A DNA stretch of 64,000 bases from Chloroflexota bacterium (GCA_026705025.1 JAPPBN010000030.1:12822-76821), one strand, 5' to 3'. Shown: positions 14,793 through 62,764, counted from the first letter of the stretch. Numbers and translations are program-made. Notes: generated by a model not told the origin, from the sequence alone.

Positions 14793-14806
14793 CCCTGGAG
14801 CATCAC

Positions 14807-20056: not shown

Positions 20057-20090
20057 CCCTCACCCCCACCCTCTCCCTCGGGAGAGGGGG
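20057..20090. repeat. REP family 2 (CCCTCACCC-N-CCCTCTCCC-N3-GGGAGAGGG)
   Basis: ccctcacccccaccctctccctcgggagaggggg. Related copies at 36504-36536, 62652-62684 and 62710-62743. Confidence 0.8.
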
Positions 20091-20181
20091 CCGAAACCAG
20101 GAGCGATGGGCAGGTCTCCAGAGGAGAGTGCGGACGCGGATATTGCCATTTCAGGCGGATGGCTGGTCGTTTGGACAGCAC

Positions 20182-35899: not shown

Positions 35900-36337
35900 T
35901 CATGCCTCCGGATGTCGCGCCAGCCAGTCGGCGAACTGGGCTCGGCGCCGCTGCCGATGAGCTTCGTCATCGCTCGATCGGATGAAGTCGGTCCACTCGG
36001 CGACGCTGTCCGGCTGGGCAGCCGGCGGGCCGCCGCGCAGGCCGCTGGTCGGACGCGGTTGCGAAGCGCGGGCGCGCGCCTCGAAATCCCGTGTCAGCTC
36101 CGAGCGAACCGTGGCCTCGCGTTCGCGAGCCGCCCGCTCCGCGATCAGATCGCGCCAGGCGTTGGCCAGGTCGTCCGGCTCCTCAGCCGAACCAATGCGA
36201 TCGCGTTCATCTGCCGACAACTCGCCGATCGCATCGAGCATCGCCTCCCGTAGCGCCGTCCCGTCGCCCGCTCCCGCTTCCGGTTGCAAGCCGTCGCCAA
36301 CGGCCGTGGTCTCTGCAGATTCCATCTGCGCCTCCAA
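35900..36337 (-). CDS. scaffolding-like acidic/coiled protein
   Basis: 145 aa, Glu/Asp/Arg/Ala-rich, immediately upstream of the capsid-like gene. Confidence 0.4.
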   Translation of the reverse strand: MEAQMESAETTAVGDGLQPEAGAGDGTALREAMLDAIGELSADERDRIGSAEEPDDLANAWRDLIAERAAREREATVRSELTRDFEARARASQPRPTSGLRGGPPAAQPDSVAEWTDFIRSSDDEAHRQRRRAQFADWLARHPEA

Positions 36338-36429
36338 ACAAACTGAGCGCCGACGGACAATGTCCGGTCGGCGCTCGAAGGCGCGCGGTCCGTTGCGCTA
36401 GGTCGTCGAATGTATGCCGTCGCCCCATA

Positions 36430-36441
36430 GAACACAAGTTC
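36430..36441. promoter_or_regulatory. perfect GAAC-N4-GTTC dyad (LexA/Cheo-box-like)
   Basis: cataGAACACAAGTTCcctattgt, 93 nt upstream of the scaffold-like gene start. Confidence 0.35.
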
Positions 36442-36503
36442 CCTATTGTGCCCCCGGCAACACCCTCAAACTTGGAGGCCCCTACGAGATACAAGATCTG
36501 GTT

Positions 36504-36536
36504 CCTTCTCCCTGAGGGAGAGGGTTAGGGTGAGGG
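36504..36536. repeat. REP family 2
   Basis: ccttctccctgagggagagggttagggtgaggg. Confidence 0.8.
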
Positions 36537-36635
36537 CCCTTCAGCGATCGAGCCAGGCCAACTTCCCACCGCCAAACAGCAAACGCATCGAATTTTCTGG
36601 CGCTAGTTGGTCAAAACCTGACAAAACTGAGCCAG

Positions 36636-36675
36636 ATCTGGACCAATCTGGACAAATCTGGACAAATCTGGACGC
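36636..36675. repeat. four tandem 10-bp units ATCTGGACAA (iteron-like)
   Basis: atctggacca atctggacaa atctggacaa atctggacgc. The reverse-complement 16-mer gtccagatttgtccag recurs at 52575-52590. Confidence 0.8.
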
Positions 36676-36799
36676 CAGAACGCGCGATTCTCAGTCCACA
36701 ACAGCAGATCAACCAATCGCCTCCCAAAATCGCCCGCCCGCCCCACATCCCTCCCGGATCGGTGATTGGGCCCTCGATCGCTGCAAGTATCCTGACCCA

Positions 36800-39226: not shown

Positions 39227-39741
39227 CTCTGCCAGCGCCCCTTGCCCCAACCGCCCATGCCATCCCGATCGAAGCCGTTGTTCACGACATCTTCAATCCG
39301 GGTCGCTGCCTCCGACTTCTTCGTCTCGGCCTCTTCATCGGTCAGCTTGCCGGCCTCCACGGCCGCGTCGATCCGCTCGTTGGCCTTGACGACCAGCGCG
39401 TCGATCACCGTCTGCGCATCGACGCCGTTCTCCCCGGCAATCTCGGCCAGCGTCTTGCCTTCGGCGAGCGCAGTCTTCAGTCCGTCGACATCCGTGCCCA
39501 CCAGCTCGGCCAGCGCTGAAACACCGGCGCCGAACTTGCCGTGACCCCTGCGGCCTTCGCAGTCTTCCTTCTCCGATTCTCCTTCGCCCTCCGAGAATTG
39601 CTGGCCATGTTGAGTGCGATTGCCGTCTTCCGAACGTGCCGAGATGACCGTCACTGCTGCGACCCCGATCGAAGCAACCAGCGCCAGCGGCAGGAGCCAC
39701 TTGTAGGCCAGACCAATCCAGCGATTCGAAATTGTTTCCAC
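39223..39741 (-). CDS. hypothetical N-terminally anchored/secreted protein
   Basis: 172 aa. N-terminal TM WLLPLALVASIGVAAVTVI, then an acidic and helical region. Confidence 0.5.
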   Translation of the reverse strand: METISNRWIGLAYKWLLPLALVASIGVAAVTVISARSEDGNRTQHGQQFSEGEGESEKEDCEGRRGHGKFGAGVSALAELVGTDVDGLKTALAEGKTLAEIAGENGVDAQTVIDALVVKANERIDAAVEAGKLTDEEAETKKSEAATRIEDVVNNGFDRDGMGGWGKGRWQS

Positions 39742-39862
39742 CGGTCATTCCCTTCTTGCATCTGGGGGCCGTCCCCGATGCAAGAAACCTATGGAGACGA
39801 CGTAAGCGCCATCCGACCGGCAGGTATGCAGAGCGTCAACGCTCGGTGAAGTCTGGCGCTGG

Positions 39863-41206
39863 CTAGGGAATCTCGGGGTCGTAGTCCATCCCGATATGGC
39901 CGCGCTCCCGGAACGCCTCGTATTCCGACTCCGGATAGCCCAGCACCTCGCGATAGACGTAGTCGTTGTCTTCGCCCAGCGCGACCGCCGGCTTACGGAT
40001 CCCCAGCGGCGTCTCCGAGAACCTCATGAACGGCGTGTTGTAGCGGAACGAACCCACGTCGTCGTAAAGGTCGTGCTCTTCGTTCAGACCCCGGTGCTGC
40101 ACATGCGCATCGTCGTAGATCCGCGATGAATCCAGCACAGGCGCCGCGGGCACGCCGTGCGACTGCAACACATGCATCAGCTCATAATCCGTCTGAGTCG
40201 ATGTCCATTTCGCAATCTGCTCGTCCAGTAGGTCGTGACCTTCCAGACGCCCCGCCTCTCGCCGCAGTTCCGGCGCGCTTGCCCATCCCGGATCGCCCAT
40301 CGCCGCTCGCAGACCCAGCCACTGGTCGTCATCCATCACCGAGATCGAGATCCAGCGGTCGCTGCCGTCCGTCCCGTCGCCGTCCGATTTCGCCGGATAG
40401 AGGTTGTACGGAGCGTGTCCGTTGACCGATCGATTGCCGATCCGTTCCTGCACGACCCCATTGAACGAGTAGTCCATGAAAGCCTGTGCCAGCATCCCTC
40501 CTGCGCACTCCGCCTGCGCCAGCTCAATGAACTGGCCCTCGCCCGTCCGACGCCGGTGCCGCAGCGCCGCCATAATCGCGAACGCCGCGTGCGCCCCGGC
40601 GACATAATCCCCGGAAAAGATCGAAGTGATGTAGGACGGGTCAAGGTCGGGATAGCCGCGCAACAGCGTGTGTCCCATTACCGACTCGAGATGCACGCCC
40701 AACGCGCGTGCGAAGCGGTAGGGACCGTTCGACCCGTATGCGGGCATTCGCAGGGCGATGATGTCCTCGCGCGACTGACGCAAGAAGTCCGGTCCAATGC
40801 CCAGCTTTTCCAGCGTGCCCGAGGCATTGTTTTCGACCAGCGCATCCGATTTCGAGACCAGGTTAGCGAAGATCTCGCGACCTTCGTCGGAGACGAGATC
40901 GACGGTCATCGAGTGCTTGTTGCGGAACTGCTGGACGAAGGTCGGCGCGTAGTTCCAGGGCCGCGGTCCAGGTTCTGCGTTTGGGTAGCCCACCGCCCAG
41001 CCTGCGCCGGCTTTGACCATCTCCGCCGACGGCCGGGCCTGTCCGCCCCGGGTCATCGGTTGCCAGACGTGGATGTTCTCGACTTTGATCACTTCGGCGC
41101 CAAGGTCGGCCAACAGCGTTGTCCCGAAGGTCCCCGCCCAGACCACAGTCAGGTCAATCACGCGAATGCCAGAGAGTGGCAGAGTCAAGGCTGGATCGCT
41201 ACTCAC
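39863..41206 (-). CDS. family III CoA-transferase
   Basis: IRVIDLTVVWAGTFGTTLLADLGAEVIKVEN. GTG 41206 preferred (8-nt overlap with the upstream stop); ATG 41251 is the maximal ORF. Confidence 0.85.
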   Translation of the reverse strand: MSSDPALTLPLSGIRVIDLTVVWAGTFGTTLLADLGAEVIKVENIHVWQPMTRGGQARPSAEMVKAGAGWAVGYPNAEPGPRPWNYAPTFVQQFRNKHSMTVDLVSDEGREIFANLVSKSDALVENNASGTLEKLGIGPDFLRQSREDIIALRMPAYGSNGPYRFARALGVHLESVMGHTLLRGYPDLDPSYITSIFSGDYVAGAHAAFAIMAALRHRRRTGEGQFIELAQAECAGGMLAQAFMDYSFNGVVQERIGNRSVNGHAPYNLYPAKSDGDGTDGSDRWISISVMDDDQWLGLRAAMGDPGWASAPELRREAGRLEGHDLLDEQIAKWTSTQTDYELMHVLQSHGVPAAPVLDSSRIYDDAHVQHRGLNEEHDLYDDVGSFRYNTPFMRFSETPLGIRKPAVALGEDNDYVYREVLGYPESEYEAFRERGHIGMDYDPEIP

Positions 41207-42419
41207 CCAGCGCTCCCGTCGCTCGCAGATCCCCGATCTCTGACGAGCCAAACCCGCACTCCGACAACACCTCGTCCGTGTGCCCCCCCAGCTTGGGCGC
41301 CGGGCGCCTCAGCGACCAGGGTGAGGCCGACATCATGAACGGGCGGCCGGGAATCTGGACTTCACCCAACTCGTCGTGATTGGTCTCGGCCCAGAAGCCG
41401 CGATCGCTGAAGTGGGTGTCTTCGAAGAGCTCGTCGACCGAGAACAGTGGGCCGCAGAGCACCTTCGCCTCTCGCGCCTCGGCCCAGATCTCACGTTTGG
41501 TCCGCTCAAGCGCCCAAGGCAAGAAATGGGCGTTGAATTCTTCAACCAGCGCCGGATTTACTCCGGCGCCCGGCCGCCACCACTTCTCCTCCTGCAGCCA
41601 CTCGGGGCTGCCTAGCATCTCGTCCAGGCGCGGGACCCGAATCGCGGCACCCGAAAATTCCACGTAGCCATCGGCGCAGGGATAGACGCCCGATAGCATG
41701 CCCGCCGCCGGACCGGGCGCGCGCAGCGACTTGCGCCCGGCGTACTCCCAGCCCATGGTTGTCGCGTGGCGGCGGTCGACGCCGTTGAACTGTGCATCGG
41801 CCATGGCGAAGTCGACGTGCTGGGCGATGCCCTGCAGCTCGGCCGAGGTCAACGCTCCCATCGCCGCGGCCGCCGCTGCCGAGCCGCACTCGACGAGCGA
41901 AGCAGTGCCGTACATTTTGACCGGCTCACGATCCTGTACGCCGATCGAGTACATCTCACCGGCGAACCCGTACAGCACCAGGTCCGAGACCCGGTAGTCG
42001 CGGTAGGGCGAGTCGTGGCCGAACGGCGTGATCGAGACCATCGGCAGGTCGCCGCGCGACGCGCTCACCTGCTCCCAGCCGTAACCCAGCGACTCCAGCC
42101 GCCCGGCCGGCTGCGACTCGATTACGATGTCGGCCCGCCGCAACAGCCGCTCCATCACCGCTCTCGCCTCTTGCCGTTCCAGGTCAAGCACCATCGAGCG
42201 CTTGTTGGTGTTGAAGTAGAAGAAGGTCCCGGACCGTTCCGGCCCGCTGACGCCCTGATACCAGGGCCCGACTGACCGCGACGGATCGCCGCCGGGCGGC
42301 TCAACCTTGATCACGTCCGCGCCGAAGTCGGCAAACAGCTTGGTGCAGTACGGACCCGCGACGTGCTCGGTCAGATCGAGAACGGTGACGCCTTCGAGGG
42401 GTCCAGCTGGGTCCGCCAT
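41199..42419 (-). CDS. family III CoA-transferase
   Basis: 406 aa from ATG 42419: MADPAGPLEGVTVLDLTEHVAGPYCTKLFADFGADVIKVEPP. Confidence 0.85.
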   Translation of the reverse strand: MADPAGPLEGVTVLDLTEHVAGPYCTKLFADFGADVIKVEPPGGDPSRSVGPWYQGVSGPERSGTFFYFNTNKRSMVLDLERQEARAVMERLLRRADIVIESQPAGRLESLGYGWEQVSASRGDLPMVSITPFGHDSPYRDYRVSDLVLYGFAGEMYSIGVQDREPVKMYGTASLVECGSAAAAAAMGALTSAELQGIAQHVDFAMADAQFNGVDRRHATTMGWEYAGRKSLRAPGPAAGMLSGVYPCADGYVEFSGAAIRVPRLDEMLGSPEWLQEEKWWRPGAGVNPALVEEFNAHFLPWALERTKREIWAEAREAKVLCGPLFSVDELFEDTHFSDRGFWAETNHDELGEVQIPGRPFMMSASPWSLRRPAPKLGGHTDEVLSECGFGSSEIGDLRATGALGE

Positions 42420-42536
42420 GCGTCGGAGTGTAGGGGTAGCGTCGAAACACAGGCTCGGCAGCCGCGCTTCTCCAATGCGAACCGCAGCCGTTCTGAACAT
42501 AGAGCAGATAAACCAGGTATCCGCTATATTGACCAC

Positions 42537-42767
42537 ATGGCAGCAATGAATCCGATCCTTCGCATTCGCCGGGCATTCCGAGAGTTCGGCGCGACCTCCG
42601 CACAGGCCGACGAAGCGGTGAGCGCCGTTGACGAGTACTACGTGAGCCGGCAAGAGTTCGATGACCGGATCAGGGCCATCATGGCAGAGCAGACCAACCG
42701 CATACTCCTAGGCACATTCGTCCTGCTCAGCATCGCCGTCGGCGTGATTCTCGCTTTCGTCGCCTGA
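42537..42767 (+). CDS. small tail-anchored membrane protein (DUF1640-like architecture)
   Basis: 76 aa, MAAMNPILRIRRAFREFG...C-terminal TM LLGTFVLLSIAVGVILAFVA. Confidence 0.55.
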   Translation: MAAMNPILRIRRAFREFGATSAQADEAVSAVDEYYVSRQEFDDRIRAIMAEQTNRILLGTFVLLSIAVGVILAFVA

Positions 42768-42779
42768 GTTGAGCTCGAC

Positions 42780-43040
42780 ATGGCGACGATGAATCCAATC
42801 CTGAGACTTCGGCAAGCATTCCGATCGATGGGCGTTGAGGACGACCGGGCGGACGAAGCCGCGGACGCCATCGACCACCACACCTACGGACGTCGAGAGT
42901 CGGATCTGTTTCATGCCCAGATGATGTTGGAGTTTCGCCGTGACATGGCGGAAATGCGCACTCAGATGCTCCTGGCCATCTTCATCGCCGCGGGTTTGAT
43001 CATCACCGCGGTCGGAGTTCTCATTGCCGTGTTCGACTGA
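42780..43040 (+). CDS. small tail-anchored membrane protein (DUF1640-like architecture)
   Basis: 86 aa, MATMNPILRLRQAFRSMG...C-terminal TM LLAIFIAAGLIITAVGVLIAVF. Tandem paralog. Confidence 0.55.
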   Translation: MATMNPILRLRQAFRSMGVEDDRADEAADAIDHHTYGRRESDLFHAQMMLEFRRDMAEMRTQMLLAIFIAAGLIITAVGVLIAVFD

Positions 43041-43049
43041 CTCCATGGC

Positions 43050-44426
43050 TCAATCCGGATGACGCGCGATCTGGCCTCTCGGTTTTGTCGTGATCACAGC
43101 CGTCCCGGTTCTGAACGGTTTCAGGATCGTCAGTTCGTGCATGTAGCGGTCCGCGTCGAGGAGGTCGTCGTTCAGTTTCTTCGGTTTGGGCGATTGCTCG
43201 CCTGATTTCAGGTCCCACTGGTACTCGCGCATCCGCTCCGGAAAGCGGTGCATGGGCGGGGTGTAGTAGGAACCGGGCGGATCCTGACTGAGTCGCTGTT
43301 GGACCAGGCTGATGCCCCAGTTGAGAGAGTCCGGTCCTCCCTTACTGGGCACGACCCTGTGCCCCTGGCGGCGTTGATGATCGATCCAGGCCGACTGCGA
43401 GCGATCGGCGCACCACTGGATCGGGCCCAGCTTGCGCTGCCAGTGATGTTGCCATTGCTCGAGCCGTTCCGTCACGCCGGGCCCGCGATCTTCGAACTCA
43501 CCGAGACGGATCAGCACGTTGGGACCGCAGGGCGCGCGATTGGAGGTGATTCCGGCGACGACTCCAGCCGTGTAATGGTCACGCGGCGACTGCCCGCCGA
43601 AGTCGAGTCCTCCGATGTATCTGGCGAACGGGGGCAGCGGGGCGTCCCAGAGCTGGCGTCGGGGATCGAAGTCGGGGTAGATCTGACCCTCGAACGCATC
43701 GAAGCGGCCCTCGATGAAGCGCTGGACCCACTCGCCGGGCTGCAGCGCCTGCTGCTGAGCGGCATAGTTGTCGGGCAGGTGCGGGTTGTCGGGAATCCTG
43801 GCGGGGATGTACACGATCCTGCCTGCGGCCTCGGCGAATGCGGATTCGTCCAGCTCACGACGAGCAAACCAGCGCTCGAACCACCCAGGCCAGGGATTGG
43901 AGGCGGCGACGAACCAACGTTGGGGCTGCGCCGGATGCCTGAGACGGGTCAAGAGCATCTGCGCGGCCTCCTCGGCCACTTCGCCGGCTTCGTCGACAAA
44001 GACCGCGCCGTACTGTTCCGATCCCAGCCCAGTCCACTCCGACAGATGCCGAAAGTGGATCGTCGAGCTCACTCCGCCAGGCCAGGCCACATCTCGGATT
44101 GACACCCATTGCGGCGCCGATCGTTGCCGACCGACTATGAGGCGCTCCGGCAGACATTCGAAGAACTCACGCATCGTGGTGGTCTGTAGATCGGAGTAGT
44201 GCTGCCGCGCGACGAGGATGTTCGTCCCGGGATAAGAGAGTGCAGTATCGATCGCCAATTCAGCGATCGCGCGGGTCTTGCCGCCGCCCATCGCGCCGCC
44301 GTAGCCAACCAGAGTCGTGCCGCCGGCCGGCGTCTGGCGCAGAGCGTCGTACACCGCGAGTTGCCGAGCGGTTGGCGTAAATCGTTGCTCCTGGGGCTCA
44401 AGGGCACTCAGGCTACGTGTCGCCAT
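43050..44426 (-). CDS. phage terminase large subunit
   Basis: 458 aa. Walker A GYGGAMGGGKT, Walker B AVFVDEAGE, C-terminal nuclease-type LLDADRY. Confidence 0.8.
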   Translation of the reverse strand: MATRSLSALEPQEQRFTPTARQLAVYDALRQTPAGGTTLVGYGGAMGGGKTRAIAELAIDTALSYPGTNILVARQHYSDLQTTTMREFFECLPERLIVGRQRSAPQWVSIRDVAWPGGVSSTIHFRHLSEWTGLGSEQYGAVFVDEAGEVAEEAAQMLLTRLRHPAQPQRWFVAASNPWPGWFERWFARRELDESAFAEAAGRIVYIPARIPDNPHLPDNYAAQQQALQPGEWVQRFIEGRFDAFEGQIYPDFDPRRQLWDAPLPPFARYIGGLDFGGQSPRDHYTAGVVAGITSNRAPCGPNVLIRLGEFEDRGPGVTERLEQWQHHWQRKLGPIQWCADRSQSAWIDHQRRQGHRVVPSKGGPDSLNWGISLVQQRLSQDPPGSYYTPPMHRFPERMREYQWDLKSGEQSPKPKKLNDDLLDADRYMHELTILKPFRTGTAVITTKPRGQIARHPD

Positions 44427-44778
44427 CGCCCGCTCCCGCTCGTACTCCGGGAGGCTGATCCAGCGGCGGGGTCAATCGCACGACCGGCACGCCTCCCTCG
44501 GGTGTGCTCTCCTTGAACATGCCAATGTCTCTGCCCATGACTTCCCAGGCGCGCAACTGGACGTTCTCCGATGCGCTGCGATAGGCCAGTTGGCGAATCC
44601 CCTGTATCACCTCACTCCTGGTTACCGGCCCCTCGGGAATCTCGACCGCATCCTGTTCACGATCAGACAAAACAATCCTCGCATTCTGCAGTCTCGCCTC
44701 GGCAGGCGAGCCACACGCAATCGACGGAAGAATGCGGTCGATCATATACGTACATCTGTGCGAGGTCGATTTCGCCAC
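44413..44778 (-). CDS. terminase small subunit-like protein
   Basis: 121 aa overlapping the terminase large gene by 14 nt. ...LRAWEVMGRDIGMFKE resembles the helix seen in small terminases. Start uncertain. Confidence 0.35.
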   Translation of the reverse strand: MAKSTSHRCTYMIDRILPSIACGSPAEARLQNARIVLSDREQDAVEIPEGPVTRSEVIQGIRQLAYRSASENVQLRAWEVMGRDIGMFKESTPEGGVPVVRLTPPLDQPPGVRAGAGDGDT

Positions 44779-44897
44779 GCGCTATGACAGTGAAGCAAGC
44801 GACAGCCAGGAACCATGCGCCGCTCCGTGCCCGATCGATCAGAGCTCAGCCTCTGCAGCGCCCAGGCCTCGTCACCGGGACCGCCAGAACTTGGCGG

Positions 44898-46316
44898 CTA
44901 ATCCTTTTGACCCGACATCAGGGCGACGGGGCGCAGCGTTGGTGGAGGCGGCATCGTTGGTGCGGCGGCGCCGTTAGCGCCGTTGGTTGACGCGGCGGCT
45001 CGAGCGGGCGCGGGGAGCGCCGACGGCAGTATGGGATGGTCGTCCTTGCGGATGGCGAGCCAGCCGAAGGTTCCGAGGACGGCGACGACGAAGGCGGCGA
45101 GGCCCATCATGCCGAATACTTCCCGCTCGCCGATGGCGTCGGCGAGCACTCCTGCCGGGCCGGCGAAGACCATCTGCACGCCCCAGGCCATCATCGTGAA
45201 GGCCATCACCCGACCGTAGTAGGCCGACTCGGTGTTCATCATGATCCGCGCCTGGAGGATCATCACCGGCCCTTGCAGGCCGGGACCCAGGATGGCCATG
45301 CCGATCATCGCCTGACCGAAGGTCTGCGAGGCGGCCAGGACGAAGTAACCAACTCCCAGCGACGCCACCAGCAGCAGGGTGGTCGGCCAGGCCCAGCGGG
45401 TCGTGGCCAGGCCGGCGACGACAAATGAGATGATCGCCGCCGCGATCCCGTTGACCAGGAAGAGCTGTCCCATGTCGGTGGTGGGACGATCGAGGTGCTG
45501 GTCAAGGAAGGCCGGCGTCAGGATGCGGAAGAGGAAGCCGATCACGACAGTGCTGACGAACATCAGCAGCATCAAGCGCAGAGCCGGCCGCCGCCAGACG
45601 TAGCGACCGCCGTCGACGATGTCGGCGATGACGCCCCGTCGTTGGGCGGGCTGCTGGGCGCCCGTCGCCGTTGCCTCTGGAGCGCCCGGGTCGCCCTGGC
45701 GACGGCGATTCGGCATAACGGCCACGGTGAACACGCCGACCGCAACCAACGCGCCCATCACCAGATACGTGCCGCCTGATCCTGCCGCAGACTCCAACAG
45801 CAGGGCCGCGATGAACGGCGAGAAGGGCTGTCCAATCGTGTGCGATAGCTGGCTCAGCACGATCGCGTTGCCGATCAGGTGCGGGCCAACCAGGTCGGCG
45901 GTGAAGGCGTTGCGCGCCGGCCCCATCACCACGAAGGTGAAGCCGAGCCCCAACATCAGCACGAACATCAGCGGCAGCGTCATCTGACCCAGCAGGAGTA
46001 GCACGCCGGTGAGCGCCAGCATCGCTGCGCCGCCGCCCTGGCCGATGACGATCACCCACTTGCGGTTCATGCGGTCGGCAATCACGCCGCCGAATGGCGC
46101 AAGCAGCATTGCCAGGCCGACGCCAGTCCCGATCACTCCGACCGCGGTATTCGTCCCTGACAGGTCGTAGGAGACGACGGACATCGCCAGGAACATCATC
46201 ATGTAGGCGAATGTGGCGAACAGCGTGCCGATAAAGAGCACGCGGAAGTGGCCGTCGTTCAGAGCGGCGAACGTGTTCCGCCGCCATGCGCCGAATGCGT
46301 CGATACTTCGCGCCAT
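44898..46316 (-). CDS. MFS transporter (inverted paralog of 31404-32783)
   Basis: 472 aa. Same N-terminus (RRNTFAALNDGHFRVLFIGTLFATFAYMMMFLAMSVVSYDL) and tail (PPPPTLRPVALMSGQK) as the other copy. Confidence 0.85.
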   Translation of the reverse strand: MARSIDAFGAWRRNTFAALNDGHFRVLFIGTLFATFAYMMMFLAMSVVSYDLSGTNTAVGVIGTGVGLAMLLAPFGGVIADRMNRKWVIVIGQGGGAAMLALTGVLLLLGQMTLPLMFVLMLGLGFTFVVMGPARNAFTADLVGPHLIGNAIVLSQLSHTIGQPFSPFIAALLLESAAGSGGTYLVMGALVAVGVFTVAVMPNRRRQGDPGAPEATATGAQQPAQRRGVIADIVDGGRYVWRRPALRLMLLMFVSTVVIGFLFRILTPAFLDQHLDRPTTDMGQLFLVNGIAAAIISFVVAGLATTRWAWPTTLLLVASLGVGYFVLAASQTFGQAMIGMAILGPGLQGPVMILQARIMMNTESAYYGRVMAFTMMAWGVQMVFAGPAGVLADAIGEREVFGMMGLAAFVVAVLGTFGWLAIRKDDHPILPSALPAPARAAASTNGANGAAAPTMPPPPTLRPVALMSGQKD

Positions 46317-48688: not shown

Positions 48689-49333
48689 TCATTCAACGTT
48701 GGCCTCGTCGGCCAGACGCCAGATTTCGGCGCAATCGACCTTGAGGCCCACGAGGACGTCTTCGCCGTCAAGCGTTGCTGGACGCTCCAGCAGCTGGGGT
48801 TCCTGAGCAGGGCGGAAGATCCAGACGTTGCAGGCATCGAGGTCGACGAGCCAGCCGAGGCGTACGCCGTAGTGCATCCAGATTTCCATCTTGGTTTGCT
48901 GGTCACGGAGCCGGTCACTGGGGGAGCGGATCTCGACGACGAAGTCGGGGTTGAACGACATCGCGCCTTTGACGTCCTCGCGCATCGCTGTGGCCAGCCG
49001 CTCCGGGCTCACCCATGAGACATCGTGTTCCAGCAGCCGGGTTTGGCCGTTCGCATCGGTCATTCTGTAGCCAGCGCTGGAATCGCGGTTACGACCCCCG
49101 CCGCCACCGATGCGCCAGTTTCCAACCTGTCGCCCAAATTCTGCTCCGACGTCCGAGCTTTCATCACCGGCATGCACGTTGATCACCAACTCCCCGTCGT
49201 CGAGTTCGAACTTCCAGCCCGGGTTTTCGTCGCTGATGCGCTCGAGTTCTTCGTCGCTGATCGCTTCGAGGCCGCAGCCGATGCGGATCAGGCCGGGCAA
49301 GGGTGGTGCGTCGACAGGAGCGGTGGTGGCCAT
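48689..49333 (-). CDS. Uma2-family (DUF820) endonuclease-like protein
   Basis: From ATG 49333. PDFVVEIRSPSD and the WLVDLD-type C-terminus typical of Uma2. Confidence 0.7.
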   Translation of the reverse strand: MATTAPVDAPPLPGLIRIGCGLEAISDEELERISDENPGWKFELDDGELVINVHAGDESSDVGAEFGRQVGNWRIGGGGGRNRDSSAGYRMTDANGQTRLLEHDVSWVSPERLATAMREDVKGAMSFNPDFVVEIRSPSDRLRDQQTKMEIWMHYGVRLGWLVDLDACNVWIFRPAQEPQLLERPATLDGEDVLVGLKVDCAEIWRLADEANVE

Positions 49334-50799: not shown

Positions 50800-52470
50800 A
50801 TGACCTACGACTTCGACCTCGGCGCCTACAGCCGAACGATCACGACCTCCTCGCCCGAGGCGCAGACCTGGTTCGACCGCGGACTGATCTGGACCTACGG
50901 CTTCAACCACGACGAAGCCGTCCACTGCTTCCGACAGGCGGTCGCAGCCGACCCGGATTGCGCCATGGCTCACTGGGGCATCGCCTATGCGATCGGGCCC
51001 AACTACAACAAGCCGTGGGAGGCGTTCGGCCGGAAGGAAGTCGCCCAGGCGCTGACGACGGCCTACGAGGAAGCCAACCTTGCGGTGTCACTGTCCGACG
51101 AATGCACACCGGCGGAGCGCGACTTGGTTGCGGCGCTGCGCCACCGATATCCGCAGACGGAGCCGTTGGACGACATGATGGGCTGGGTCGACGACTACGC
51201 CGACGCCATGCGCGAGGTCTACCGCAACCACTCCGAAGACTCCGATATCGGCTCGCTGTTTGCAGAGGCGATGATGAATCGGACTCCCTGGTCGCTGTGG
51301 AATCTGGAGTCGGGCGAACCGGCGGACGGCGCCGACACGGTCGAGGCGCGCGAGGTGCTGGAGGGTGCCATGGCGCGCATCGCTCATTGCGGCGAGCCGC
51401 GGCATCCAGGCATCCTGCACATGTACATCCACCTGATGGAGATGTCGCCCTTCCCCGAGCTGGCCCTGCGGGCGGCCGACCAGTTGCGCGGGATCGCTCC
51501 CCACTCCGGACACCTGCAGCACATGGCGACGCACATCGACGTGCTCTGCGGTGACTACCTGAACGTCGTCAACTGGAACGAGCGGGCAATCCAGGCCGAC
51601 CGACCGTACGTGGAAGCGCGCGGGCCGTTCAACTTCTACACGATGTACCGGGCCCACAACTATCACTTCAAAATCTACGGCGCGATGTTCCTCGGCCAGT
51701 TCGAGCCGGCGTTAGAGACCGCGCGGGCGATGCAGGGCGAGATTCCCGAGGAGCTTCTGCGGATGGAGACGCCCAACATGGCCGACTGGCTGGAGGCGTT
51801 TGTGCCGATCGATCAGCACGTGCTGGTCCGGTTCGGCAAGTGGGAAGAGATCCTCGAACAGCCGCTGCCGGAGGACCGCGAGCTCTACTGCGTCACCACT
51901 GCGACGATGCGCTACGCGCGGGCGATCGCCCTGGCCACGCTGGGCCGGACCGACGAGGCGGTGGCCGAGGCGAAGGAGTTCGATCGCGCCTTCGAATTGG
52001 TGCCCGACACCCGCTACCAGTTCAACAATCCCAGCCGCGACATCCTCGCCATCGCGCAGGAGATGATGCGCGGGGAGATCGCCTATCGGCAGGGCCAGTT
52101 CGACGCCGCCTTCACGCACCTGCGCCACGCGGTCGAGCTCGACGACCACCTGCACTACGACGAGCCCTGGGGCTGGATGCAGCCCGTCCGCCACGCGCTC
52201 GGAGCGCTGCTGCTGGAGCAGGACCAAGTGTCGGAGGCGCTCGACGTGTACCGCGCCGATCTGGGCTACGACTCATCGGTCAGCCGTCCCCGCCAGCACC
52301 TGGACAACGTCTGGGCGCTGGCAGGCTACGTGGAGTGCCTGGAGCGCACCGGCCAGGACGACCTCGCCGCCGTCGCCCGCCAACGCCTCCACCTCGCCCA
52401 GGCCCGAGCCGACACCGAAGTCCAGTCCTCCTGCTTCTGCCGCCTCGACCTCGGCGAGTGCTGCGAGTAG
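50800..52470 (+). CDS. TPR-like helical repeat protein
   Basis: 556 aa from ATG 50800. AQTWFDRGLIWTYGFNHDEAVHCFRQAVAADPDCAMAHWGIAY and further TPR-like helices. Confidence 0.65.
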   Translation: MTYDFDLGAYSRTITTSSPEAQTWFDRGLIWTYGFNHDEAVHCFRQAVAADPDCAMAHWGIAYAIGPNYNKPWEAFGRKEVAQALTTAYEEANLAVSLSDECTPAERDLVAALRHRYPQTEPLDDMMGWVDDYADAMREVYRNHSEDSDIGSLFAEAMMNRTPWSLWNLESGEPADGADTVEAREVLEGAMARIAHCGEPRHPGILHMYIHLMEMSPFPELALRAADQLRGIAPHSGHLQHMATHIDVLCGDYLNVVNWNERAIQADRPYVEARGPFNFYTMYRAHNYHFKIYGAMFLGQFEPALETARAMQGEIPEELLRMETPNMADWLEAFVPIDQHVLVRFGKWEEILEQPLPEDRELYCVTTATMRYARAIALATLGRTDEAVAEAKEFDRAFELVPDTRYQFNNPSRDILAIAQEMMRGEIAYRQGQFDAAFTHLRHAVELDDHLHYDEPWGWMQPVRHALGALLLEQDQVSEALDVYRADLGYDSSVSRPRQHLDNVWALAGYVECLERTGQDDLAAVARQRLHLAQARADTEVQSSCFCRLDLGECCE

Positions 52471-52572
52471 TTGCCCATCGGAGTTCGCAGGAGACGATCT
52501 GACCTGCCTGGGCGGTGATTTTGGGCTAGTTTTGCTCAATTTCGTGTGCTGGACAGGGAATTTTGGCCGTTT

Positions 52573-52610
52573 GAGTCCAGATTTGTCCAGAAGAGTCCAG
52601 ACCAGTCCGG
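52573..52610. repeat. 10-bp phased GTCCAG repeats
   Basis: gagtccagat ttgtccagaa gagtccagac cagtccgg. Reverse orientation of the array at 36636-36675. Confidence 0.75.
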
Positions 52611-52718
52611 GTGTCGTGAGTGTGAGTGCGGGCCGATCCGGGTGAGTGCGGGAATGTCGGGGGTGGGGTCTAGGGGGTGGTCGGAGCATCGGAGCTCGGC
52701 ACTCTGGGGTTGAGTCGT

Positions 52719-52893
52719 TCAGATGTTCTCATTGTATGCGGAGTCGGGGATGACGGGGTCGGTGGCCCCGGCGTCGAGGGCGGGGAACTGGTGGCGGATG
52801 TATGAAGTGTCGTCTTCGGAGAGGTCGTAGACGGGGAAGAACAGGGCATCGAGGCGGGTGCGGAGCTTGCGGCGCCCGGGTAGATCGCAGTAA
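52719..52893 (-). pseudogene. C-terminal remnant of a larger gene (possibly a DNA methyltransferase/restriction-type C-terminus)
   Basis: Startless open frame reading ...YCDLPGRRKLRTRLDALFFPVYDLSEDDTSYIRHQFPALDAG...NENI* with stop at 52719-52721. The LDA..h..YxLSxEE..YI...FP pattern resembles C-termini of type IIG/BREX-type methyltransferases as I recall them. A G9 run lies just upstream at 52895-52903. Confidence 0.3.
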
Positions 52894-53048
52894 AGGGGGG
52901 GGGCGACAGACGTTTGTCGTGCACATTTGGTCAGGGGTTGGTCATTGGGTTAGGGCCTAGAGAGTGCTTAGGAGTGGGTGGCGTGGATAGCGAGAACGCG
53001 ATAGCATGCGTCAGCCGAAATTTTCGCTTTTGTGAACTGAGGGTAGAA

Positions 53049-55571
53049 ATGCAACTCGCGACCGCCTACGTAAGATTCTATAAGGCATTCAACTACGACT
53101 ACCTTCGGAAGGCTCACCCTGATTTTGAACCGGATCCCTGGGATGTTTTGGAAGACGGTCCAGCATATCCATACATCACAGTCCCCATCGAGTCGAAACT
53201 CACTTGCATTGTCGGTGCTAATGAAGCCGGCAAGAGTCAACTCCTCGACGCGATTCAGTTGGCGCTAAGCACGGAAACCCCAAAGCCGACCGACCTTTGC
53301 CGTTACTCGGAGTTCTTTACGGTGTCCGGAGAACCGCGCGTACCCGACGTCGGTCTCCACTTCAGCCAACTTACGGATGAGGAGTCAGTCGAACTCCAAG
53401 AAGTCGTTGGACGGCAGGGGGGTCCTGCGATCAAATCCTTCAGAATGTTCAAGGTTCATCCCAGGAAAATCTTGCTCTACTTCGACAATGAGGAGGAACC
53501 CCTAGACATTTCAGATCGCGGCGACGAGCTTGCCAAGCTTCTACCCGACGCTGTCAGAATTGAACCAACCTATGAACTCCCAGACAGTGTGCCCATCGGC
53601 GTGCTATTGCCGCCGGGTGCCGAGGGCTCTCTTGATATCGGGCTCGATCGAAGGGATCAGATTGAATTCACTAAGCTGCTCCTGCCGATCATCGAGGCTG
53701 TACGCGAAGATGATGCAGAGACCACGGATCACACCGCGGTCATCGAGCCCCTGATCCAACAGATCAGGAAGGTCGCCCCAATGAGCGAGCGCGATAGGAA
53801 GGAACTGCAGCAACGACAAGCGCTTGCGCGCGACCTACTGGTGGAGATTGCTGGGATCGGCCCGCAAGCAATCAGCGACCTTCAGCAAACATCGCCTGAC
53901 GGAGGGTATGGTCATGCGAGCGCCATTGAGGCCAAGATGAACGGTCAACTGGGCGATGCGTTGAATCTAGCCAAATGGTGGAGTCAGGACAGCGAGTTCC
54001 GATTGAAGATAAACGCGCACGATCAACAGCTGTTGCTTACAGTCCGCGACAGAACGGGGAGCCAGTACACATTCGATGAGAGGAGTCATGGGTTGAAGTA
54101 CTTTCTGAGTTATCTCATTCAGGCTCTGACGCACATGAGGTCCCGGACGGGACGAGAGATACTCCTCATGGATGAACCGGATGCCTTTTTGTCGAATGAA
54201 GGGCAACAAGACCTGTTGCGCGTCTTCGCCGAGTTCACTAGGCCGATCGGAGATGCGCCGGGCGCTCAAGTCATATACGTCACGCATTCCCCCTTCCTCA
54301 TCGACAAGAACCGCGGCGATCGCATTCGCGTGCTGGCGAAGGGCGATAGAGACGAAGGAGTGAGGGTCGTAAAAGATGTCGGCAAGAACCATTTTGAGCC
54401 CATCAGAACGGCGCTGGGGGGATTTGTTGGCGAGTCAGTCTTCATAGGGAACTGCAATCTCGTGGTGGAAGGAATGGCGGATCAGATTTATCTCGCCGGA
54501 TTTTCCGAGATGATTAGTCAAAATGAGGAGGGCATTTCCGCGGAACATCTTGACCTCAATCGTGTAACCTTGGTCCCGGCTGGCGGTGCCTCGGAAGTTC
54601 CCTATCATGTCTATCTGGCCCGGGGCCGAGGTGCGGAGAAACCCGCGTTGGTTGTCCTGCTCGATGGAGATCAAGCCGGAGATGATGCGGTTAGGAAGCT
54701 AAGGAGGGGAGGGCCGGGCAACAAGATGCTGCTAGAAGATAAGTACATTGCGCAGCTCAAGCCAAGCGAGGCTCTCGAGGTTTCAAGTGATCTAGAGCAT
54801 GGCGCGTTGGCGACCGAGGATTTGATTCCTGTTGAGTTGGGGGTGAAGGCCGCGAAAGCCTATTTGACGACAATGAAAGTGCCATACCGCGCGGATCTAC
54901 TCACACCGCAATCCGTGAAGCAGCACCTTGAGGATGCCAAGGGAGTATTCGAGGCGATCGAAAGTGTCGTCGAGGGTGCGATCCAAGGATCGGGCCAAGA
55001 TGAGGTGAGCGAATTCAGGCTATACAAGGTCGCATTTGCTCGTCATGTGGTCGAAGAGTGTCGAAGGGGCAATGGTGATTTGAGAGCCAAGACCCTTTCG
55101 CGATTCAAAGTACTGTTCAGATCGCTTACTAGCATGCAACGCGAAGCGGAATATGAGCGGGCACAAGAGGCAATCACGTCCCGCATAGATCGAGAAGTCA
55201 CGAAGTTTATCAAGGATTGGTTTTCACATGTTACGAAGTCAGATGTGAACACCTTGCTGGAGAGGCTTGGCTACGTCATCGACGACTCAGTAGCCGGAGA
55301 GGCGACTGCTCGAGCGATGTCTCAACTGCGAGTTGAGTTCAATCTGGATGTGAATCCCAATGAACGAATCAAGGTAGGTGATCTTGAGGGATTGAGAGTC
55401 AGGCTCATGGGTCTCAAGGACGCCGGAATTCAAGAATCACAACTCGAGTCGATCACATCGACGGAAGATGAGTCTACGATTGTGGGATCTGGCGCCGCCG
55501 CAGGGGCCACTAATGAAGATGAGATTGATCCGTCCGAGGGAGGCGGCAGTGCCGCGAACCTTGCTTCCTAG
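53049..55571 (+). CDS. OLD-family ABC-type ATPase + Toprim nuclease-like protein (defence candidate)
   Basis: 840 aa from ATG 53049. Walker A IVGANEAGKSQLLDAI, signature-like ERSHGLKYFLSYL, Walker B ILLMDEPDAFLS, VIYVTHSPFLI. Then Toprim-like NLVVEGMADQIYL and VVLLDGDQAGDDA. About 270-aa helical C-terminal extension of unknown function. Visibly AT-richer than its flanks. Confidence 0.8.
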   Translation: MQLATAYVRFYKAFNYDYLRKAHPDFEPDPWDVLEDGPAYPYITVPIESKLTCIVGANEAGKSQLLDAIQLALSTETPKPTDLCRYSEFFTVSGEPRVPDVGLHFSQLTDEESVELQEVVGRQGGPAIKSFRMFKVHPRKILLYFDNEEEPLDISDRGDELAKLLPDAVRIEPTYELPDSVPIGVLLPPGAEGSLDIGLDRRDQIEFTKLLLPIIEAVREDDAETTDHTAVIEPLIQQIRKVAPMSERDRKELQQRQALARDLLVEIAGIGPQAISDLQQTSPDGGYGHASAIEAKMNGQLGDALNLAKWWSQDSEFRLKINAHDQQLLLTVRDRTGSQYTFDERSHGLKYFLSYLIQALTHMRSRTGREILLMDEPDAFLSNEGQQDLLRVFAEFTRPIGDAPGAQVIYVTHSPFLIDKNRGDRIRVLAKGDRDEGVRVVKDVGKNHFEPIRTALGGFVGESVFIGNCNLVVEGMADQIYLAGFSEMISQNEEGISAEHLDLNRVTLVPAGGASEVPYHVYLARGRGAEKPALVVLLDGDQAGDDAVRKLRRGGPGNKMLLEDKYIAQLKPSEALEVSSDLEHGALATEDLIPVELGVKAAKAYLTTMKVPYRADLLTPQSVKQHLEDAKGVFEAIESVVEGAIQGSGQDEVSEFRLYKVAFARHVVEECRRGNGDLRAKTLSRFKVLFRSLTSMQREAEYERAQEAITSRIDREVTKFIKDWFSHVTKSDVNTLLERLGYVIDDSVAGEATARAMSQLRVEFNLDVNPNERIKVGDLEGLRVRLMGLKDAGIQESQLESITSTEDESTIVGSGAAAGATNEDEIDPSEGGGSAANLAS

Positions 55572-55865
55572 TCACGTTCTCATGCGAAGCCAGGTGTTGA
55601 ATCGGACGAGATCGGTCGGTCGGTCAGCATCTTGTGCCTGTGCAAGAGGCGTTGGTCGCTGGTCCGCGTCGGTCAAGCTTCGGCCAACTCTTGCGAAGTT
55701 GCGCAAGGCCTCGCACGGTGGCGAGGACGGAGAATTCTCAGCCGCCCGACCACGCTGATTCCGCCGTCGACGCGATCTCCCCACCAATCGAACACGCGAC
55801 CTCCGTCAAGTCCGACAGCACGAGCGTCGCCCCCCGCCCGTCCGACGCAATATCCGCTACGATAA

Positions 55866-55877
55866 GAACATACGTAC
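55866..55877. promoter_or_regulatory. GAAC-N4-GTAC dyad (operator candidate)
   Basis: ataaGAACATACGTACcg, 24 nt upstream of ATG 55901. Counterpart of 5092-5103. Confidence 0.35.
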
Positions 55878-55900
55878 CGTCTACTGAGAGGCCTGACCCG

Positions 55901-56215
55901 ATGCGCAACCCATTCCACCTCCGAGCCAACATCGACCGACTCTGGCGGCGCTCCGCCGACCACAACCCCGGCTACGTCCGCGTCGCTGCTCTCGACGCCA
56001 TCGTCCGCGAGCTCTACGCGCCTAACGAGCGCGCCCGCGCCAACTACCAGCTCTACCTCGCCACCGACCCCTTCGACGTCGCCCGGCACAAGCTCCGCGA
56101 CCTCTACGACCGGGCTGCCCTGTCCGCCCCCACACTATTCGAAGTCGCCCCCGCGCAGGCGGGGGCCGTCCCCGAGGAGGAAGAACAGCCCGAAGACGAC
56201 GACGACCCCTTGTAA
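55901..56215 (+). CDS. hypothetical small protein with acidic C-terminal tail (paralog B)
   Basis: 104 aa, MRNPFHLRANIDRLWRR...ends EEEEQPEDDDDPL. Paralog of 5129-5431. Followed by a T-rich tract. Confidence 0.65.
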   Translation: MRNPFHLRANIDRLWRRSADHNPGYVRVAALDAIVRELYAPNERARANYQLYLATDPFDVARHKLRDLYDRAALSAPTLFEVAPAQAGAVPEEEEQPEDDDDPL

Positions 56216-56301
56216 CTGCCCCACCCAGCACCACCGTTTTTTTCTTTTTCCAGTCCACCGACCACCTGGCTCTGCCGTGCCTGACCGCTACCTCAGCCGC
56301 A

Positions 56302-57540
56302 TCAAGCGGACGAACCGCCCAACCAGGCCGACTCGGCCGTTGAGGCGATCTCTTCGCCGATCAGCAGCGACGCTGTCGCGCCGGGACTTGGCGCGTTCAG
56401 GATGTGAATCAGGCGATCCTGGTGGGCGATTTCGAAGTCGTCGGCGAGGGTTCCGTCTCGGCGGAGGGCCTGGGCTCGGACTCCGGCTCCTCCCCGGACG
56501 AGTTGGTCGGGTTCGAGGTTGGGCATCAGGCGCTGGAGGGCGCTGACGAAGGCGGACTTGTTGGCGCTGCGCCAGACTTCGCCGAGGCCGGTTTGCCAGT
56601 GGTCGCGGGCGAGGCGGAGGAAGCCGGGCCAGGTGAGCGACTCGGCGGCGTCGCGGAGGGCGACGTCGCGCCAGCGGTAGCCCTCGCGCTTGAGGGCGAG
56701 GACGGCGTTGGGTCCGGCCTCGACGCTGCCGTCCAGGCGTCGGGTGAAGTGAACGCCGAGGAAGGGGAAGGCCGGGTCGGGGACGGGATAGATGAGGTTC
56801 TTGAGCATCCCGCGGGCTGCGGGCACGAGGTCGTAGTACTCGCCGCGGAAGGGCACGATGCGCAGGTTCCGAGCCTCGGGCGCGCCGGAGCGTCGGGCGA
56901 TGCGGTCGGCCTGGAGTCCGGCGCAGTTGACGGCGTACCTGGCGCGGACGATACCGGTCGTGGTGGCGAGCTGGACGCCCTCGGCGTCGACTCGGACGCC
57001 CGAGACGCGCGAGCGCAGACGCACCGATCCGCCGGCGGACTCGAGCAGTTCGCGGTACTTCTCGCAGACGCCTCGATAGTCGGCGATGCCGGTTGAGGGG
57101 ATGTGCAGGGCGGCGACGCCGGCGGCGTTGGGCTCGAACTCGGCCAGCTCGTCAGGTCCGAGTTCGCGGATGTCCGGGACGCCGTTGGCGTCGCCGCGGC
57201 GGTGCAGATCGCGCATGCGCTCGAGTTCGGACTCGTGCGTGGCGACGACGACCTTGCCGCAGCGCTCGGCGCCGATCCCGTGCTCGTCGCAGAACGCGTA
57301 CATGCGCTCGGCGCCGGCGACGGCCATGCGCGCCTTGGCCGAGCCGGGACGGTAGTAGAGGCCGGAGTGGATCACGCCCGAGTTGTTGCCACTCTGGTGT
57401 CGCCCAACGCCCGATTCCTGCTCCAGCGAGACGACGCGCAGCCCCTCATGCTTCGTCGCAAGCGCCATGGCGGTCGAGAGTCCAAGGATGCCGGCTCCGA
57501 TGACGGCGACGTCGGCCGTGTCGGAGTTGTGGTCAGACAC
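56302..57540 (-). CDS. lhgO: L-2-hydroxyglutarate oxidase/dehydrogenase-like FAD enzyme
   Basis: DVAVIGAGILGLSTAMAL FAD fold and HQSGNNSGVIHSGLYYRPGS, as in LhgO. GTG 57540 overlaps the selD stop by 8 nt. Confidence 0.75.
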   Translation of the reverse strand: MSDHNSDTADVAVIGAGILGLSTAMALATKHEGLRVVSLEQESGVGRHQSGNNSGVIHSGLYYRPGSAKARMAVAGAERMYAFCDEHGIGAERCGKVVVATHESELERMRDLHRRGDANGVPDIRELGPDELAEFEPNAAGVAALHIPSTGIADYRGVCEKYRELLESAGGSVRLRSRVSGVRVDAEGVQLATTTGIVRARYAVNCAGLQADRIARRSGAPEARNLRIVPFRGEYYDLVPAARGMLKNLIYPVPDPAFPFLGVHFTRRLDGSVEAGPNAVLALKREGYRWRDVALRDAAESLTWPGFLRLARDHWQTGLGEVWRSANKSAFVSALQRLMPNLEPDQLVRGGAGVRAQALRRDGTLADDFEIAHQDRLIHILNAPSPGATASLLIGEEIASTAESAWLGGSSA

Positions 57541-62610: not shown

Positions 62611-62651
62611 TGCTCCCGGACCAGTGGGGCTTCAACTTGATTTGCCGACCT

Positions 62652-62743
62652 CCCTCTCCATCTGGGAGAGGGCCGGGGTGAGGGTCCGGTCCTCGGAACG
62701 TCCCTAGGGCCCTCACCCTAACCCTCTCCCGCAGGGAGAGGGG
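62652..62743. repeat. two REP family 2 copies in inverted orientation
   Basis: ccctctccatctgggagagggccggggtgaggg ... ccctcaccctaaccctctcccgcagggagagggg. Confidence 0.8.
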
Positions 62744-62764
62744 ATTAGAGAGGAACTCGCAGGC

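Follow-up and report, generated by a model that had tools for sequence, protein, structure and literature searches.

At positions 53049-55571 of a 64,000-nucleotide stretch of DNA from a Chloroflexota bacterium (GCA_026705025.1 JAPPBN010000030.1:12822-76821; hereafter, the window) lies a gene for an 840-amino-acid (aa) OLD-family-like ATPase-Toprim protein, referred to below as the OLD gene. The genes flanking it identify the source as an uncultivated member of the Chloroflexota (Dehalococcoidia). A metagenome scaffold in the European Nucleotide Archive (ENA) is 100% identical to the window, and the 840-aa protein is unchanged on 14 contigs. The open reading frame (ORF) extends from 52914 to 55571 on the plus strand, and the ATG at 53049 yields the 840-aa product. 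This starting methionine is shared with the homologues (M1 is at least 90% conserved; R9 and N15 are invariant), and a GAGGG sequence is located 5 nt 5' of the ATG. The ATG and the homologue starts thus bore out the 840-aa ORF of the original prediction, which had been made from the sequence by itself.

The gene is far less GC-rich than its surroundings. Its GC content is 0.541 and its GC content at third codon positions (GC3) is 0.599, whereas 18 other genes of the window have values of 0.63-0.70 and 0.70-0.89, respectively. The gene is the lowest-GC 2.5-kb stretch of the 64-kb window (z = -6.9), and the dip, at ~52.9-55.7 kb, covers essentially the OLD gene alone. A compositional contrast first noticed by eye therefore proved strong when windowed GC and codon composition were computed. 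A scan of 52400-56400 for promoters and terminators returned no more than shuffled sequence did.

Domain architecture

Three Pfam profiles, AAA_21 (4.6e-14), AAA_15 (2.2e-13), and AAA_23, matched the protein above their cut-offs. The four motifs of an ATP-binding cassette (ABC) ATPase are present as Walker A (GANEAGKS, 56-63), the signature (SHGLKYF, 346-352), Walker B (LLMDEPD, 372-378), and the H-loop (VTHSP, 411-415). Among 68 full-length relatives at 41-53% identity, K62, S346/G348, D375/E376, and H413 are invariant. Foldseek matched the protein to the heads of Ts OLD, SMC, Rad50, and PtuA. In the full-length AlphaFold2 (AF2) model (predicted local distance difference test score, pLDDT, 82; predicted template-modelling score, pTM, 0.76), five helices (201-223, 229-242, 247-267, 272-281, and 287-305) are flanked by ATPase strands. 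The OLD-type ATPase, with its four motifs and a modelled helical insert, is thus complete. Ts OLD carries a helical dimerization insert in its ATPase (PMC7049728). A Pfam search with the insert of the 840-aa protein alone returned noise only. The ~330 aa originally counted between Walker A and the signature were an overestimate: the distance from K62 to S346 is 283 aa, and the insert proper comprises only ~125 aa (186-310).

The Toprim motifs follow as VEGMAD (473-478) and DGDQAGD (539-545), supplying the Glu, the acidic residue at Glu+4, and the DxD of the OLD family. In the same relatives, E474, D539, D541, E590, and D591 are invariant and D478 is at least 90% conserved, so that all of the ATPase and Toprim motifs named in the original prediction are present and invariant or nearly so. 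The family profile aligns E474 with Ts OLD E377 and D478 with Ts OLD D381. The E474-to-DxD and E590/D591 spacings agree with the metal ligands of Ts and Bp OLD, as listed in PMC7049728. E590-D591 occurs throughout as I/T-E-D. K660 is invariant in the 68 relatives and is replaced by R only in the most distant members of the family; R715 is conserved among the closer relatives only. The region adopts a four-strand beta-alpha topology in the AF2 model. The 610-position phage family phrog_4747 aligns with residues 313-590 (5e-19), and the Pfam profile OLD-like_TOPRIM (PF20469) matched 19 of 60 relatives at E ≤ 0.01. The assignment of a divergent Toprim domain is supported by sub-threshold hidden Markov model (HMM) matches, by the motifs, and by the modelled topology.

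The AF2 model of the C-terminal half (aa 462-812; pLDDT 92, pTM 0.87), comprising the Toprim and the following domain together, predicts that residues 596-808 are all-helical and include a 50-residue helix (677-727). Residues 596-808 had no match in Pfam, PADLOC, PDB, or BFVD, and a Pfam search with residues 560-840 returned noise only, consistent with the helical, unrecognized sequence anticipated after the Toprim domain. A phmmer search with the helical domain against 1.84 billion representative proteins gave 104 matches. Nearly all of those of ~785-880 aa carry the domain at the C-terminal ~600-800, and the shorter ones resemble fragments. Among these representative proteins, the ~215-aa domain is therefore exclusive to the ~785-880-aa family.

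Comparison with known OLD classes

The Thermus scotoductus OLD protein (Ts OLD, 6P74) was the best PDB match by phmmer (6.5e-9), by the family profile (1e-11), and by Foldseek (4e-12). The profile alignment spans residues 358-482, through VEGxxD; identity to 6P74 is only ~16-18%. The top PADLOC models were AriA (1.3e-15), mad3, GajA, the retron I-B ATPase-Toprim, and Old, of which the GajA and I-B alignments extend to residues 544-549. Together with phrog_4747, these HMM, PADLOC, and structure-based searches uphold the OLD-family ATPase-Toprim architecture first read from the motifs, and the 840-aa protein is very probably a member of this group.

Class 1 OLD proteins (Ts OLD, P2 Old, Vibrio cholerae Vc OLD, and E. 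coli YbjD) are likewise products of single genes, in which an N-terminal ABC ATPase, interrupted by a helical insert, precedes a C-terminal Toprim whose metal site comprises E…(+4)D and DxD. The OLD gene shares the solo arrangement, as no conserved partner was found in the window or in 13 contexts of relatives. However, Class 1 proteins comprise 500-600 aa (PMC12392090), as compared with 840 aa here and ~785-880 aa in the full-length relatives. Ts OLD is without a C-terminal helical domain (PMC7049728), whereas ~215 aa of such a domain are present here, and the Class 1 metal-B motif is S-x-E rather than (I/T)-E-D. In length and in its post-Toprim helices, the 840-aa protein therefore departs from Class 1. 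An hhalign comparison of the family profile with the single P2 Old sequence covered the N-terminal ATPase only (probability 19%) and was uninformative. A canonical OLD profile from phage records was dropped, as it contained only 3 distinct homologues (5 records, two of them duplicated).

Class 2 OLD proteins, including Gabija GajA (Bp OLD C-terminal region, 6NK8; BcGajA, 8SM3), likewise continue from ATPase and Toprim into a helical domain, which supplies the catalytic lysine (Bp K562). GajA HMMs match the 840-aa protein at 1e-9 to 1e-13, with alignments to residue 544. K660 is located 69 residues past E590/D591; the corresponding distance in Bp OLD is 54 residues. At about three times the size of its Class 2 counterpart, the helical domain had no Foldseek match to 6NK8 or GajA, so a Class 2-type helical domain was not demonstrable by Foldseek against PDB and BFVD. 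Unlike Class 2, the AF2 model has no helix of ≥4 residues between alpha3 and beta4. Furthermore, Class 2 systems include the UvrD-like GajB, whereas the OLD gene is followed by a 104-aa gene and then lhgO, and no such helicase adjoins it or any relative examined.

The Class 3 proteins (retron I-B effectors, such as that of retron Eco8; 9LPA/9P4J) are likewise long ATPase-Toprim proteins, of ~740 aa. The PADLOC ATPase-Toprim_I-B model aligns with residues 355-549 (5.5e-12), and Foldseek aligned ~900 columns with 9lpa_B (E 1.6e-10), albeit with low TM-scores of 0.24-0.27. No reverse-transcriptase Pfam gene lies within about ±10 kb, and the Rfam scan of the window contained no retron noncoding RNA, its sole find being a c-di-AMP riboswitch. 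Class 4, or PARIS (AriA plus AriB, or the fused AriAB), likewise couples an ABC ATPase with a helical insert to a Toprim. AriA and fused AriAB (1.7e-12) matched in PADLOC, but only over ATPase residues 284-423, and DUF4435, the AriB signature, was absent at E ≤ 0.1 for the full-length protein and at E ≤ 10 for the fragment. Genomic context and the lack of DUF4435 thus rule out Classes 3 and 4. The lack of an adjacent UvrD-like helicase, reverse transcriptase, or DUF4435 gene had been noted in the original prediction; none is near, which excludes classical Gabija, retrons, and PARIS with a separate DUF4435 gene. Since length and domain content separate it from Class 1, GajB is missing, and Classes 3 and 4 are excluded, we regard the 840-aa protein as an OLD-family variant outside the existing classes.

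A variable cargo slot downstream of lhgO

The closest genome record, L006 (OZ241982.1), shares 78-92% aa identity with the window over the flanking genes, namely those for a major facilitator superfamily (MFS) protein, two paralogous genes, a CoA-transferase, a tetratricopeptide repeat (TPR) protein, lhgO, selD, and ogt. Of these, lhgO and selD were confirmed by NCBIfam equivalogs. DNA homology to L006 ends at 52470, the TPR stop codon, and restarts at 56315, at the 3' end of lhgO. Between these borders, L006 holds an unrelated 3.9-kb cargo (11672-15562) of low GC (0.53-0.62), with genes for a type II DNA methyltransferase (PADLOC MTase_II, 5e-93), an XRE-type helix-turn-helix protein, and a 489-aa HEAT-repeat protein. 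In a second relative, L093 (MKWU01000086.1), whose lhgO is 89% identical, a third low-GC cargo directly follows lhgO (9222-11911) and encodes a ParE-like toxin, a 216-aa unknown protein, and a DUF4411 protein. Across 80 loci with the TPR gene, no gene for a relative of the 840-aa protein was present.

Thus, the OLD gene is not syntenic: the two closest genomes keep the TPR/lhgO-selD-ogt flanks and hold other low-GC cargo. Because the flanks are kept while the cargo differs in L006 and L093, the site downstream of lhgO is a variable cargo hotspot in the three genomes sampled, with conserved flanks and, in the window, the pronounced GC dip described above. The GC and GC3 values and the absence from the two closest genomes support the horizontal acquisition of the OLD gene, as originally suspected, into this variable slot. 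A prophage origin was considered and rejected: L006-syntenic host genes separate the terminase gene (43050-44426) from the OLD gene.

As a separate observation, the 489-aa HEAT-repeat protein of L006 had no PADLOC match and may be a novel restriction partner.

Relatives and their genomic neighbourhoods

Many full-length relatives at 41-53% identity were found, mostly in Chloroflexota metagenome-assembled genomes. Members at 35% identity are encoded on plasmids of Rhodococcus erythropolis R138 (pCRE138; WP_051636625.1), R. qingshengii, Deinococcus sp. QL22, and Acaryochloris marina S15. The family therefore spans Chloroflexota metagenome-assembled genomes and plasmids of Actinomycetota, Deinococcota, and Cyanobacteriota, and its plasmid-borne members are all labelled only "AAA family ATPase".

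No neighbour was conserved across the 13 contexts of relatives, which were also without a UvrD-like helicase, a reverse transcriptase, or a separate Toprim/DUF4435 gene. A tblastx comparison of all of the relatives' flanks found no partner gene common across loci; it detected only pairwise coincidences, consisting of Eco57I-like genes (L089/L090), an ISL3 transposase, and a 226-aa protein (L091/L176). Four OLD homologues are followed by small genes that are unrelated. Genes of defence systems or mobile elements are frequent among the neighbours: Eco57I-like and type I restriction-modification (R-M), HigBA, PIN/Phd, GmrSD, a canonical OLD, TIR, Fic/VbhA, Bil-like genes, RES, type IV secretion system (T4SS)/relaxase genes, integrases, and transposases.

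In two loci (L089, 1874-4975; L090, 2737-5913), the OLD-like proteins P0011 and P0035 adjoin homologous Eco57I-type IIG R-M genes with 52-67% aa identity across segments. This pairing may be recurrent in one sub-branch and is not general.

Proposed mechanism and alternatives

If the 840-aa protein works like Ts OLD, Vc OLD, P2 Old, and GajA, an ATPase dimer, presumably joined by the helical insert, would bind and hydrolyse ATP and thereby gate the Toprim domain. The latter would cut nucleic acid by two-metal catalysis, with E474, D539, and D541 as the putative ligands of metal A, and D478 and E590/D591 as those of metal B. The basic K660 of the C-terminal domain could be the counterpart of Bp OLD K562 or Ts OLD R487. 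The helical domain would pack on the Toprim domain and complete or guard its active site, and it may select the substrate or sense infection. The outcome would be protection against phages or other mobile DNA. Whereas its architecture, conserved residues, solo status, foreign composition, and variable site are direct observations, we infer the oligomeric state, catalysis, substrate, trigger, and defence phenotype of the 840-aa protein from these analogies, and defence is its likely function on the grounds of family and context.

Our preferred interpretation, which we consider reasonably probable by analogy, is that the OLD gene encodes a stand-alone OLD-family nuclease, horizontally acquired, that would protect against phages or other mobile DNA. 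A role in defence or mobile-element conflict exerted through nuclease activity appears scarcely less probable. DNA is the substrate of Ts OLD and Vc OLD (PMC7049728, PMC12392090), and GajA cuts it as well. We consider it somewhat more probable that invading or replicating DNA is nicked or cleaved than that tRNA is cut and the infection aborted.

Several observations weigh against this interpretation. PF20469 scored 15.6-18.7 bits (E = 0.0027) in the 840-aa protein, below its cut-off of 23.2. The C-terminal half alone had zero PADLOC model matches, and Foldseek searches with this half against PDB and BFVD gave nothing at E < 0.001 (best, 0.079); Toprim proteins (retron Eco2, Ts OLD, and the T7/DnaG primases) appeared there with E > 0.05 and probabilities of 0.6-0.87. 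The metal-B motif is (I/T)-E-D where S/T-x-E is expected. In the distant members P0154 and P0174, VEG has become VPR and DxD has become NxN or NxD, while all ATPase motifs and the invariant IEDLIP motif are kept. For E. coli YbjD, PMC13261556 reports the Toprim domain as dispensable and the ATPase as essential. The archaeal OLD class Cran1 is not defensive (PMC12796447). Moreover, the low-GC segment is bordered neither by direct repeats or att-like sites nor by an integrase gene; there is also no tRNA gene in the window.

Because the Toprim E and DxD are missing from P0154 and P0174, and because the YbjD Toprim is reported as dispensable, the nuclease is perhaps not the universal effector. The sequences of P0154 and P0174 suggest a nuclease-dead sub-branch or another role for E590/D591. 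These cases would also suit a protein in which the ATPase is the effector or sensor, acting by ATP-dependent nucleic-acid binding or clamping or by nucleotide depletion, with an accessory or non-catalytic Toprim. We nevertheless consider such a protein improbable: the invariance of E474, D539, D541, E590, and D591, with D478 at least 90% conserved, in the protein and all 67 relatives at 41-53% identity argues for selection on catalysis, and Toprim mutants abolish the activities of P2 Old and Ts OLD (PMC7049728).

The same enzyme might instead be directed at host tRNA, with the activated Toprim cutting tRNA, translation stopping, and infection being aborted without any cutting of DNA. P2 Old, the founding solo OLD, kills by ATP-hydrolysis-activated tRNA cleavage (tRNA-Thr anticodon-stem amputation; PMC12445682), and PARIS AriB is a Toprim tRNase (PMC12409363), with tRNA-Lys as its target. 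AriA is the best PADLOC match of the ATPase, and the large helical domain beside the Toprim could serve as an RNA-recognition platform. However, the AriA and AriAB alignments are confined to the ATPase, the AriB signature is absent, and the closest solved relative, Ts OLD, acts on DNA, as does Vc OLD. Nothing in the sequence decides between a tRNA and a DNA substrate; on balance, we regard the tRNA target as unlikely, although it is the most credible of the alternatives.

A non-defence function is a little less probable still than an ATPase effector. The protein would then serve mobile-element maintenance or competition, or housekeeping DNA metabolism like Cran1, and lie in the variable region by chance. 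Cran1 demonstrates that OLD proteins can have non-defence roles, and some relatives are located on plasmids or in regions resembling integrative and conjugative elements, beside relaxase, T4SS, and integrase genes. Against this, the OLD gene is of foreign composition, is absent from the two closest genomes, and is not essential or conserved as Cran1 is; the slot holds R-M-like and toxin-antitoxin-like cargo in relatives, and the relatives' neighbourhoods are defence-rich.

With defence by a solo nuclease as the preferred account, we further propose, tentatively and with less confidence, that the ~800-aa solo proteins constitute an unclassified OLD class of single-gene defence systems, in which the family-exclusive ~215-aa domain might supply the catalytic K/R and also select the substrate or sense phage. 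Of the OLD classes, the solo nucleases of Class 1 are the least well understood. Their substrates differ, being tRNA for P2 Old and DNA for Vc OLD, and, to our knowledge, phage-related phenotypes have been reported only for P2 Old, Vc OLD, and YbjD. A large and well-conserved sister family with an extra domain, predicted to be packed on the Toprim, would be a natural experiment on OLD substrate choice and activation. If the proposal is correct, then the family represents a new single-gene defence system that current annotation names only "AAA family ATPase" and that length-filtered Class 1 surveys exclude, and it could be tested directly with plasmid members in cultivable Rhodococcus, Deinococcus, and Acaryochloris. 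The lhgO-downstream slot, with three modules in three genomes, should be useful for mining defence genes in unculturable organisms.

Small genes flanking the OLD gene

The features of the OLD gene and its slot are compiled in Table 1.

Table 1. Coordinates of the OLD gene, its predicted domains, and the surrounding features in the window.
Feature	Position	Strand	Basis or remarks
OLD-family-like ATPase-Toprim gene, low GC	53049-55571	+	840 aa; Pfam, PADLOC, PDB, conservation, AF2
ABC ATPase N-terminal lobe, aa 1-185	53049-53603	+	Walker A G56-S63 (K62); AAA_21/AAA_15/AAA_23; AF2 strands and helices
Five-helix ATPase insert, aa ~186-310	53604-53978	+	AF2; position of OLD dimerization domain (Ts OLD architecture, PMC7049728)
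ABC ATPase C-terminal lobe, aa 311-462	53979-54434	+	Signature S346-F352, Walker B D375/E376, H-loop H413; 6P74 alignment
Divergent Toprim, aa 463-595 (supported by model and motifs)	54435-54833	+	E474, D478, D539, D541, E590, D591; HMM alignment, AF2, PF20469, phrog_4747
All-helical family-specific C-terminal domain, aa 596-808 (predicted)	54834-55472	+	AF2; K660 (K/R), R715
Disordered acidic/Gly-rich tail, aa 809-840 (predicted)	55473-55568	+	pLDDT below 50 for 803-840; not conserved (45-74% gaps in family alignment)
68-aa orphan ORF, divergent from OLD gene, frameshifted here	52719-52926	-	Comparison with P0222, L001-L005
G9 homopolymer tract	52895-52903	+	Window versus L001-L005
Relic of ancestral lhgO 3' end (…IASTAESAWSGG, then stop)	55742-55789	-	77% identical to 56315-56362
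104-aa gene, multi-copy Chloroflexi family	55901-56215	+	~0.57-kb high-GC insert (GC3 0.87) between relic and lhgO
Variable cargo region (hotspot)	52471-56314	.	TPR stop to lhgO 3' end; three different cargoes in three genomes
TPR-repeat protein gene, left border	50800-52470	+	Pfam TPR_2, TPR_1; 82% aa identity to L006
lhgO (L-2-hydroxyglutarate oxidase), right border	56302-57540	-	NCBIfam NF008726, 522 bits versus cut-off 299; 92% aa identity to L006

On the left, what had been taken for a startless C-terminal gene fragment at 52719-52893 is a 68-aa orphan ORF that the G9 tract frameshifts in the window. The ORF is intact with G8 in P0222 and L004 (another sample of the same strain), whereas L001-L003 and L005 share the G9 of the window. 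This difference may reflect a sequencing or assembly error, true length variation, or phase variation. Among 5.8 billion protein clusters, the 68-aa sequence matched itself only, and PADLOC and Pfam were blank. A resemblance of its segment LDALFFPVYDLSEDD to the C-termini of R-M methylases found no support and was dropped.

On the right, the relic of the lhgO 3' end that the original prediction had placed at ~55741-55840 is real; its length is ~48 nt rather than ~100. It ends in SGG before its stop codon, akin to the LGG of L006, whereas the present lhgO ends in LGGSSA. The present end (GGSSA and stop, 56302-56362 region) is a replacement, and the ~0.57-kb unit looks like an insertion that brought a surrogate lhgO end. 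The details of the proposed insertion scar had thus been misread, since the left flank is a frameshifted small ORF and the relic belongs to the 0.57-kb high-GC insert. Because this insert is separate from the OLD segment, the slot has been hit at least twice.

The 104-aa gene within the insert has 184 homologues, all from Chloroflexi/Chloroflexota where the source names an organism, and at least 8 distinct paralogues occur on one 3.33-Mb contig. The window contains a second copy at 5129-5431 on the plus strand (68% aa identity), and the two copies share ~40 nt upstream (a conserved motif) and a T-rich tract downstream. Members have ~100-120 aa, an N-terminus of NP[FY]H[LF]RANIDRLWR, and an acidic C-terminal tail, and had no match in Pfam, NCBIfam, PADLOC, or PHROG. 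The gene could be mobile or associated with a repeat.

On all contigs of the strain, the two small ORFs are no more than 330 nt away from the OLD gene, and the variable G tract could switch the 68-aa ORF on and off, as would suit a two-gene system with either small protein as regulator, antitoxin, or trigger. Such a system is nonetheless highly improbable: neither protein, nor any other neighbour, is conserved beside OLD homologues, the 104-aa family is multi-copy around the genome with a host-like GC3, and the 68-aa ORF has no homologue outside the strain.

Other features of the window

A phage-derived region at ~36000-44900 includes the gene for the terminase large subunit mentioned above (minus strand; phrog_2, 2.6e-32). 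The region, which is distinct from the OLD slot, is not collinear with L006 and may represent either a prophage or a phage-like element. A Uma2-family gene (PF05685, putative restriction endonuclease fold) at 48689-49333 on the minus strand lies between the CoA-transferase gene and the paralogue pair. L006 lacks this gene at the corresponding position, so that it marks a second small indel of accessory DNA.

The c-di-AMP riboswitch is located at 12790-12956 on the plus strand (Rfam RF00379, 87.7 bits versus a gathering score of 38). In addition, a palindromic repeat resembling repetitive extragenic palindromes (REP), with the core CCCTCTCCCTCAGGGAGAGGG, often preceded by CCCTCACCCTAA, is dispersed in intergenic regions of the lineage. 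It occurs in the window at ~20056-20098, 36497-36538, 62648-62684, and 62708-62744, and in the relatives at ~2759-2901 (L006) and ~2673-2772 (L093).

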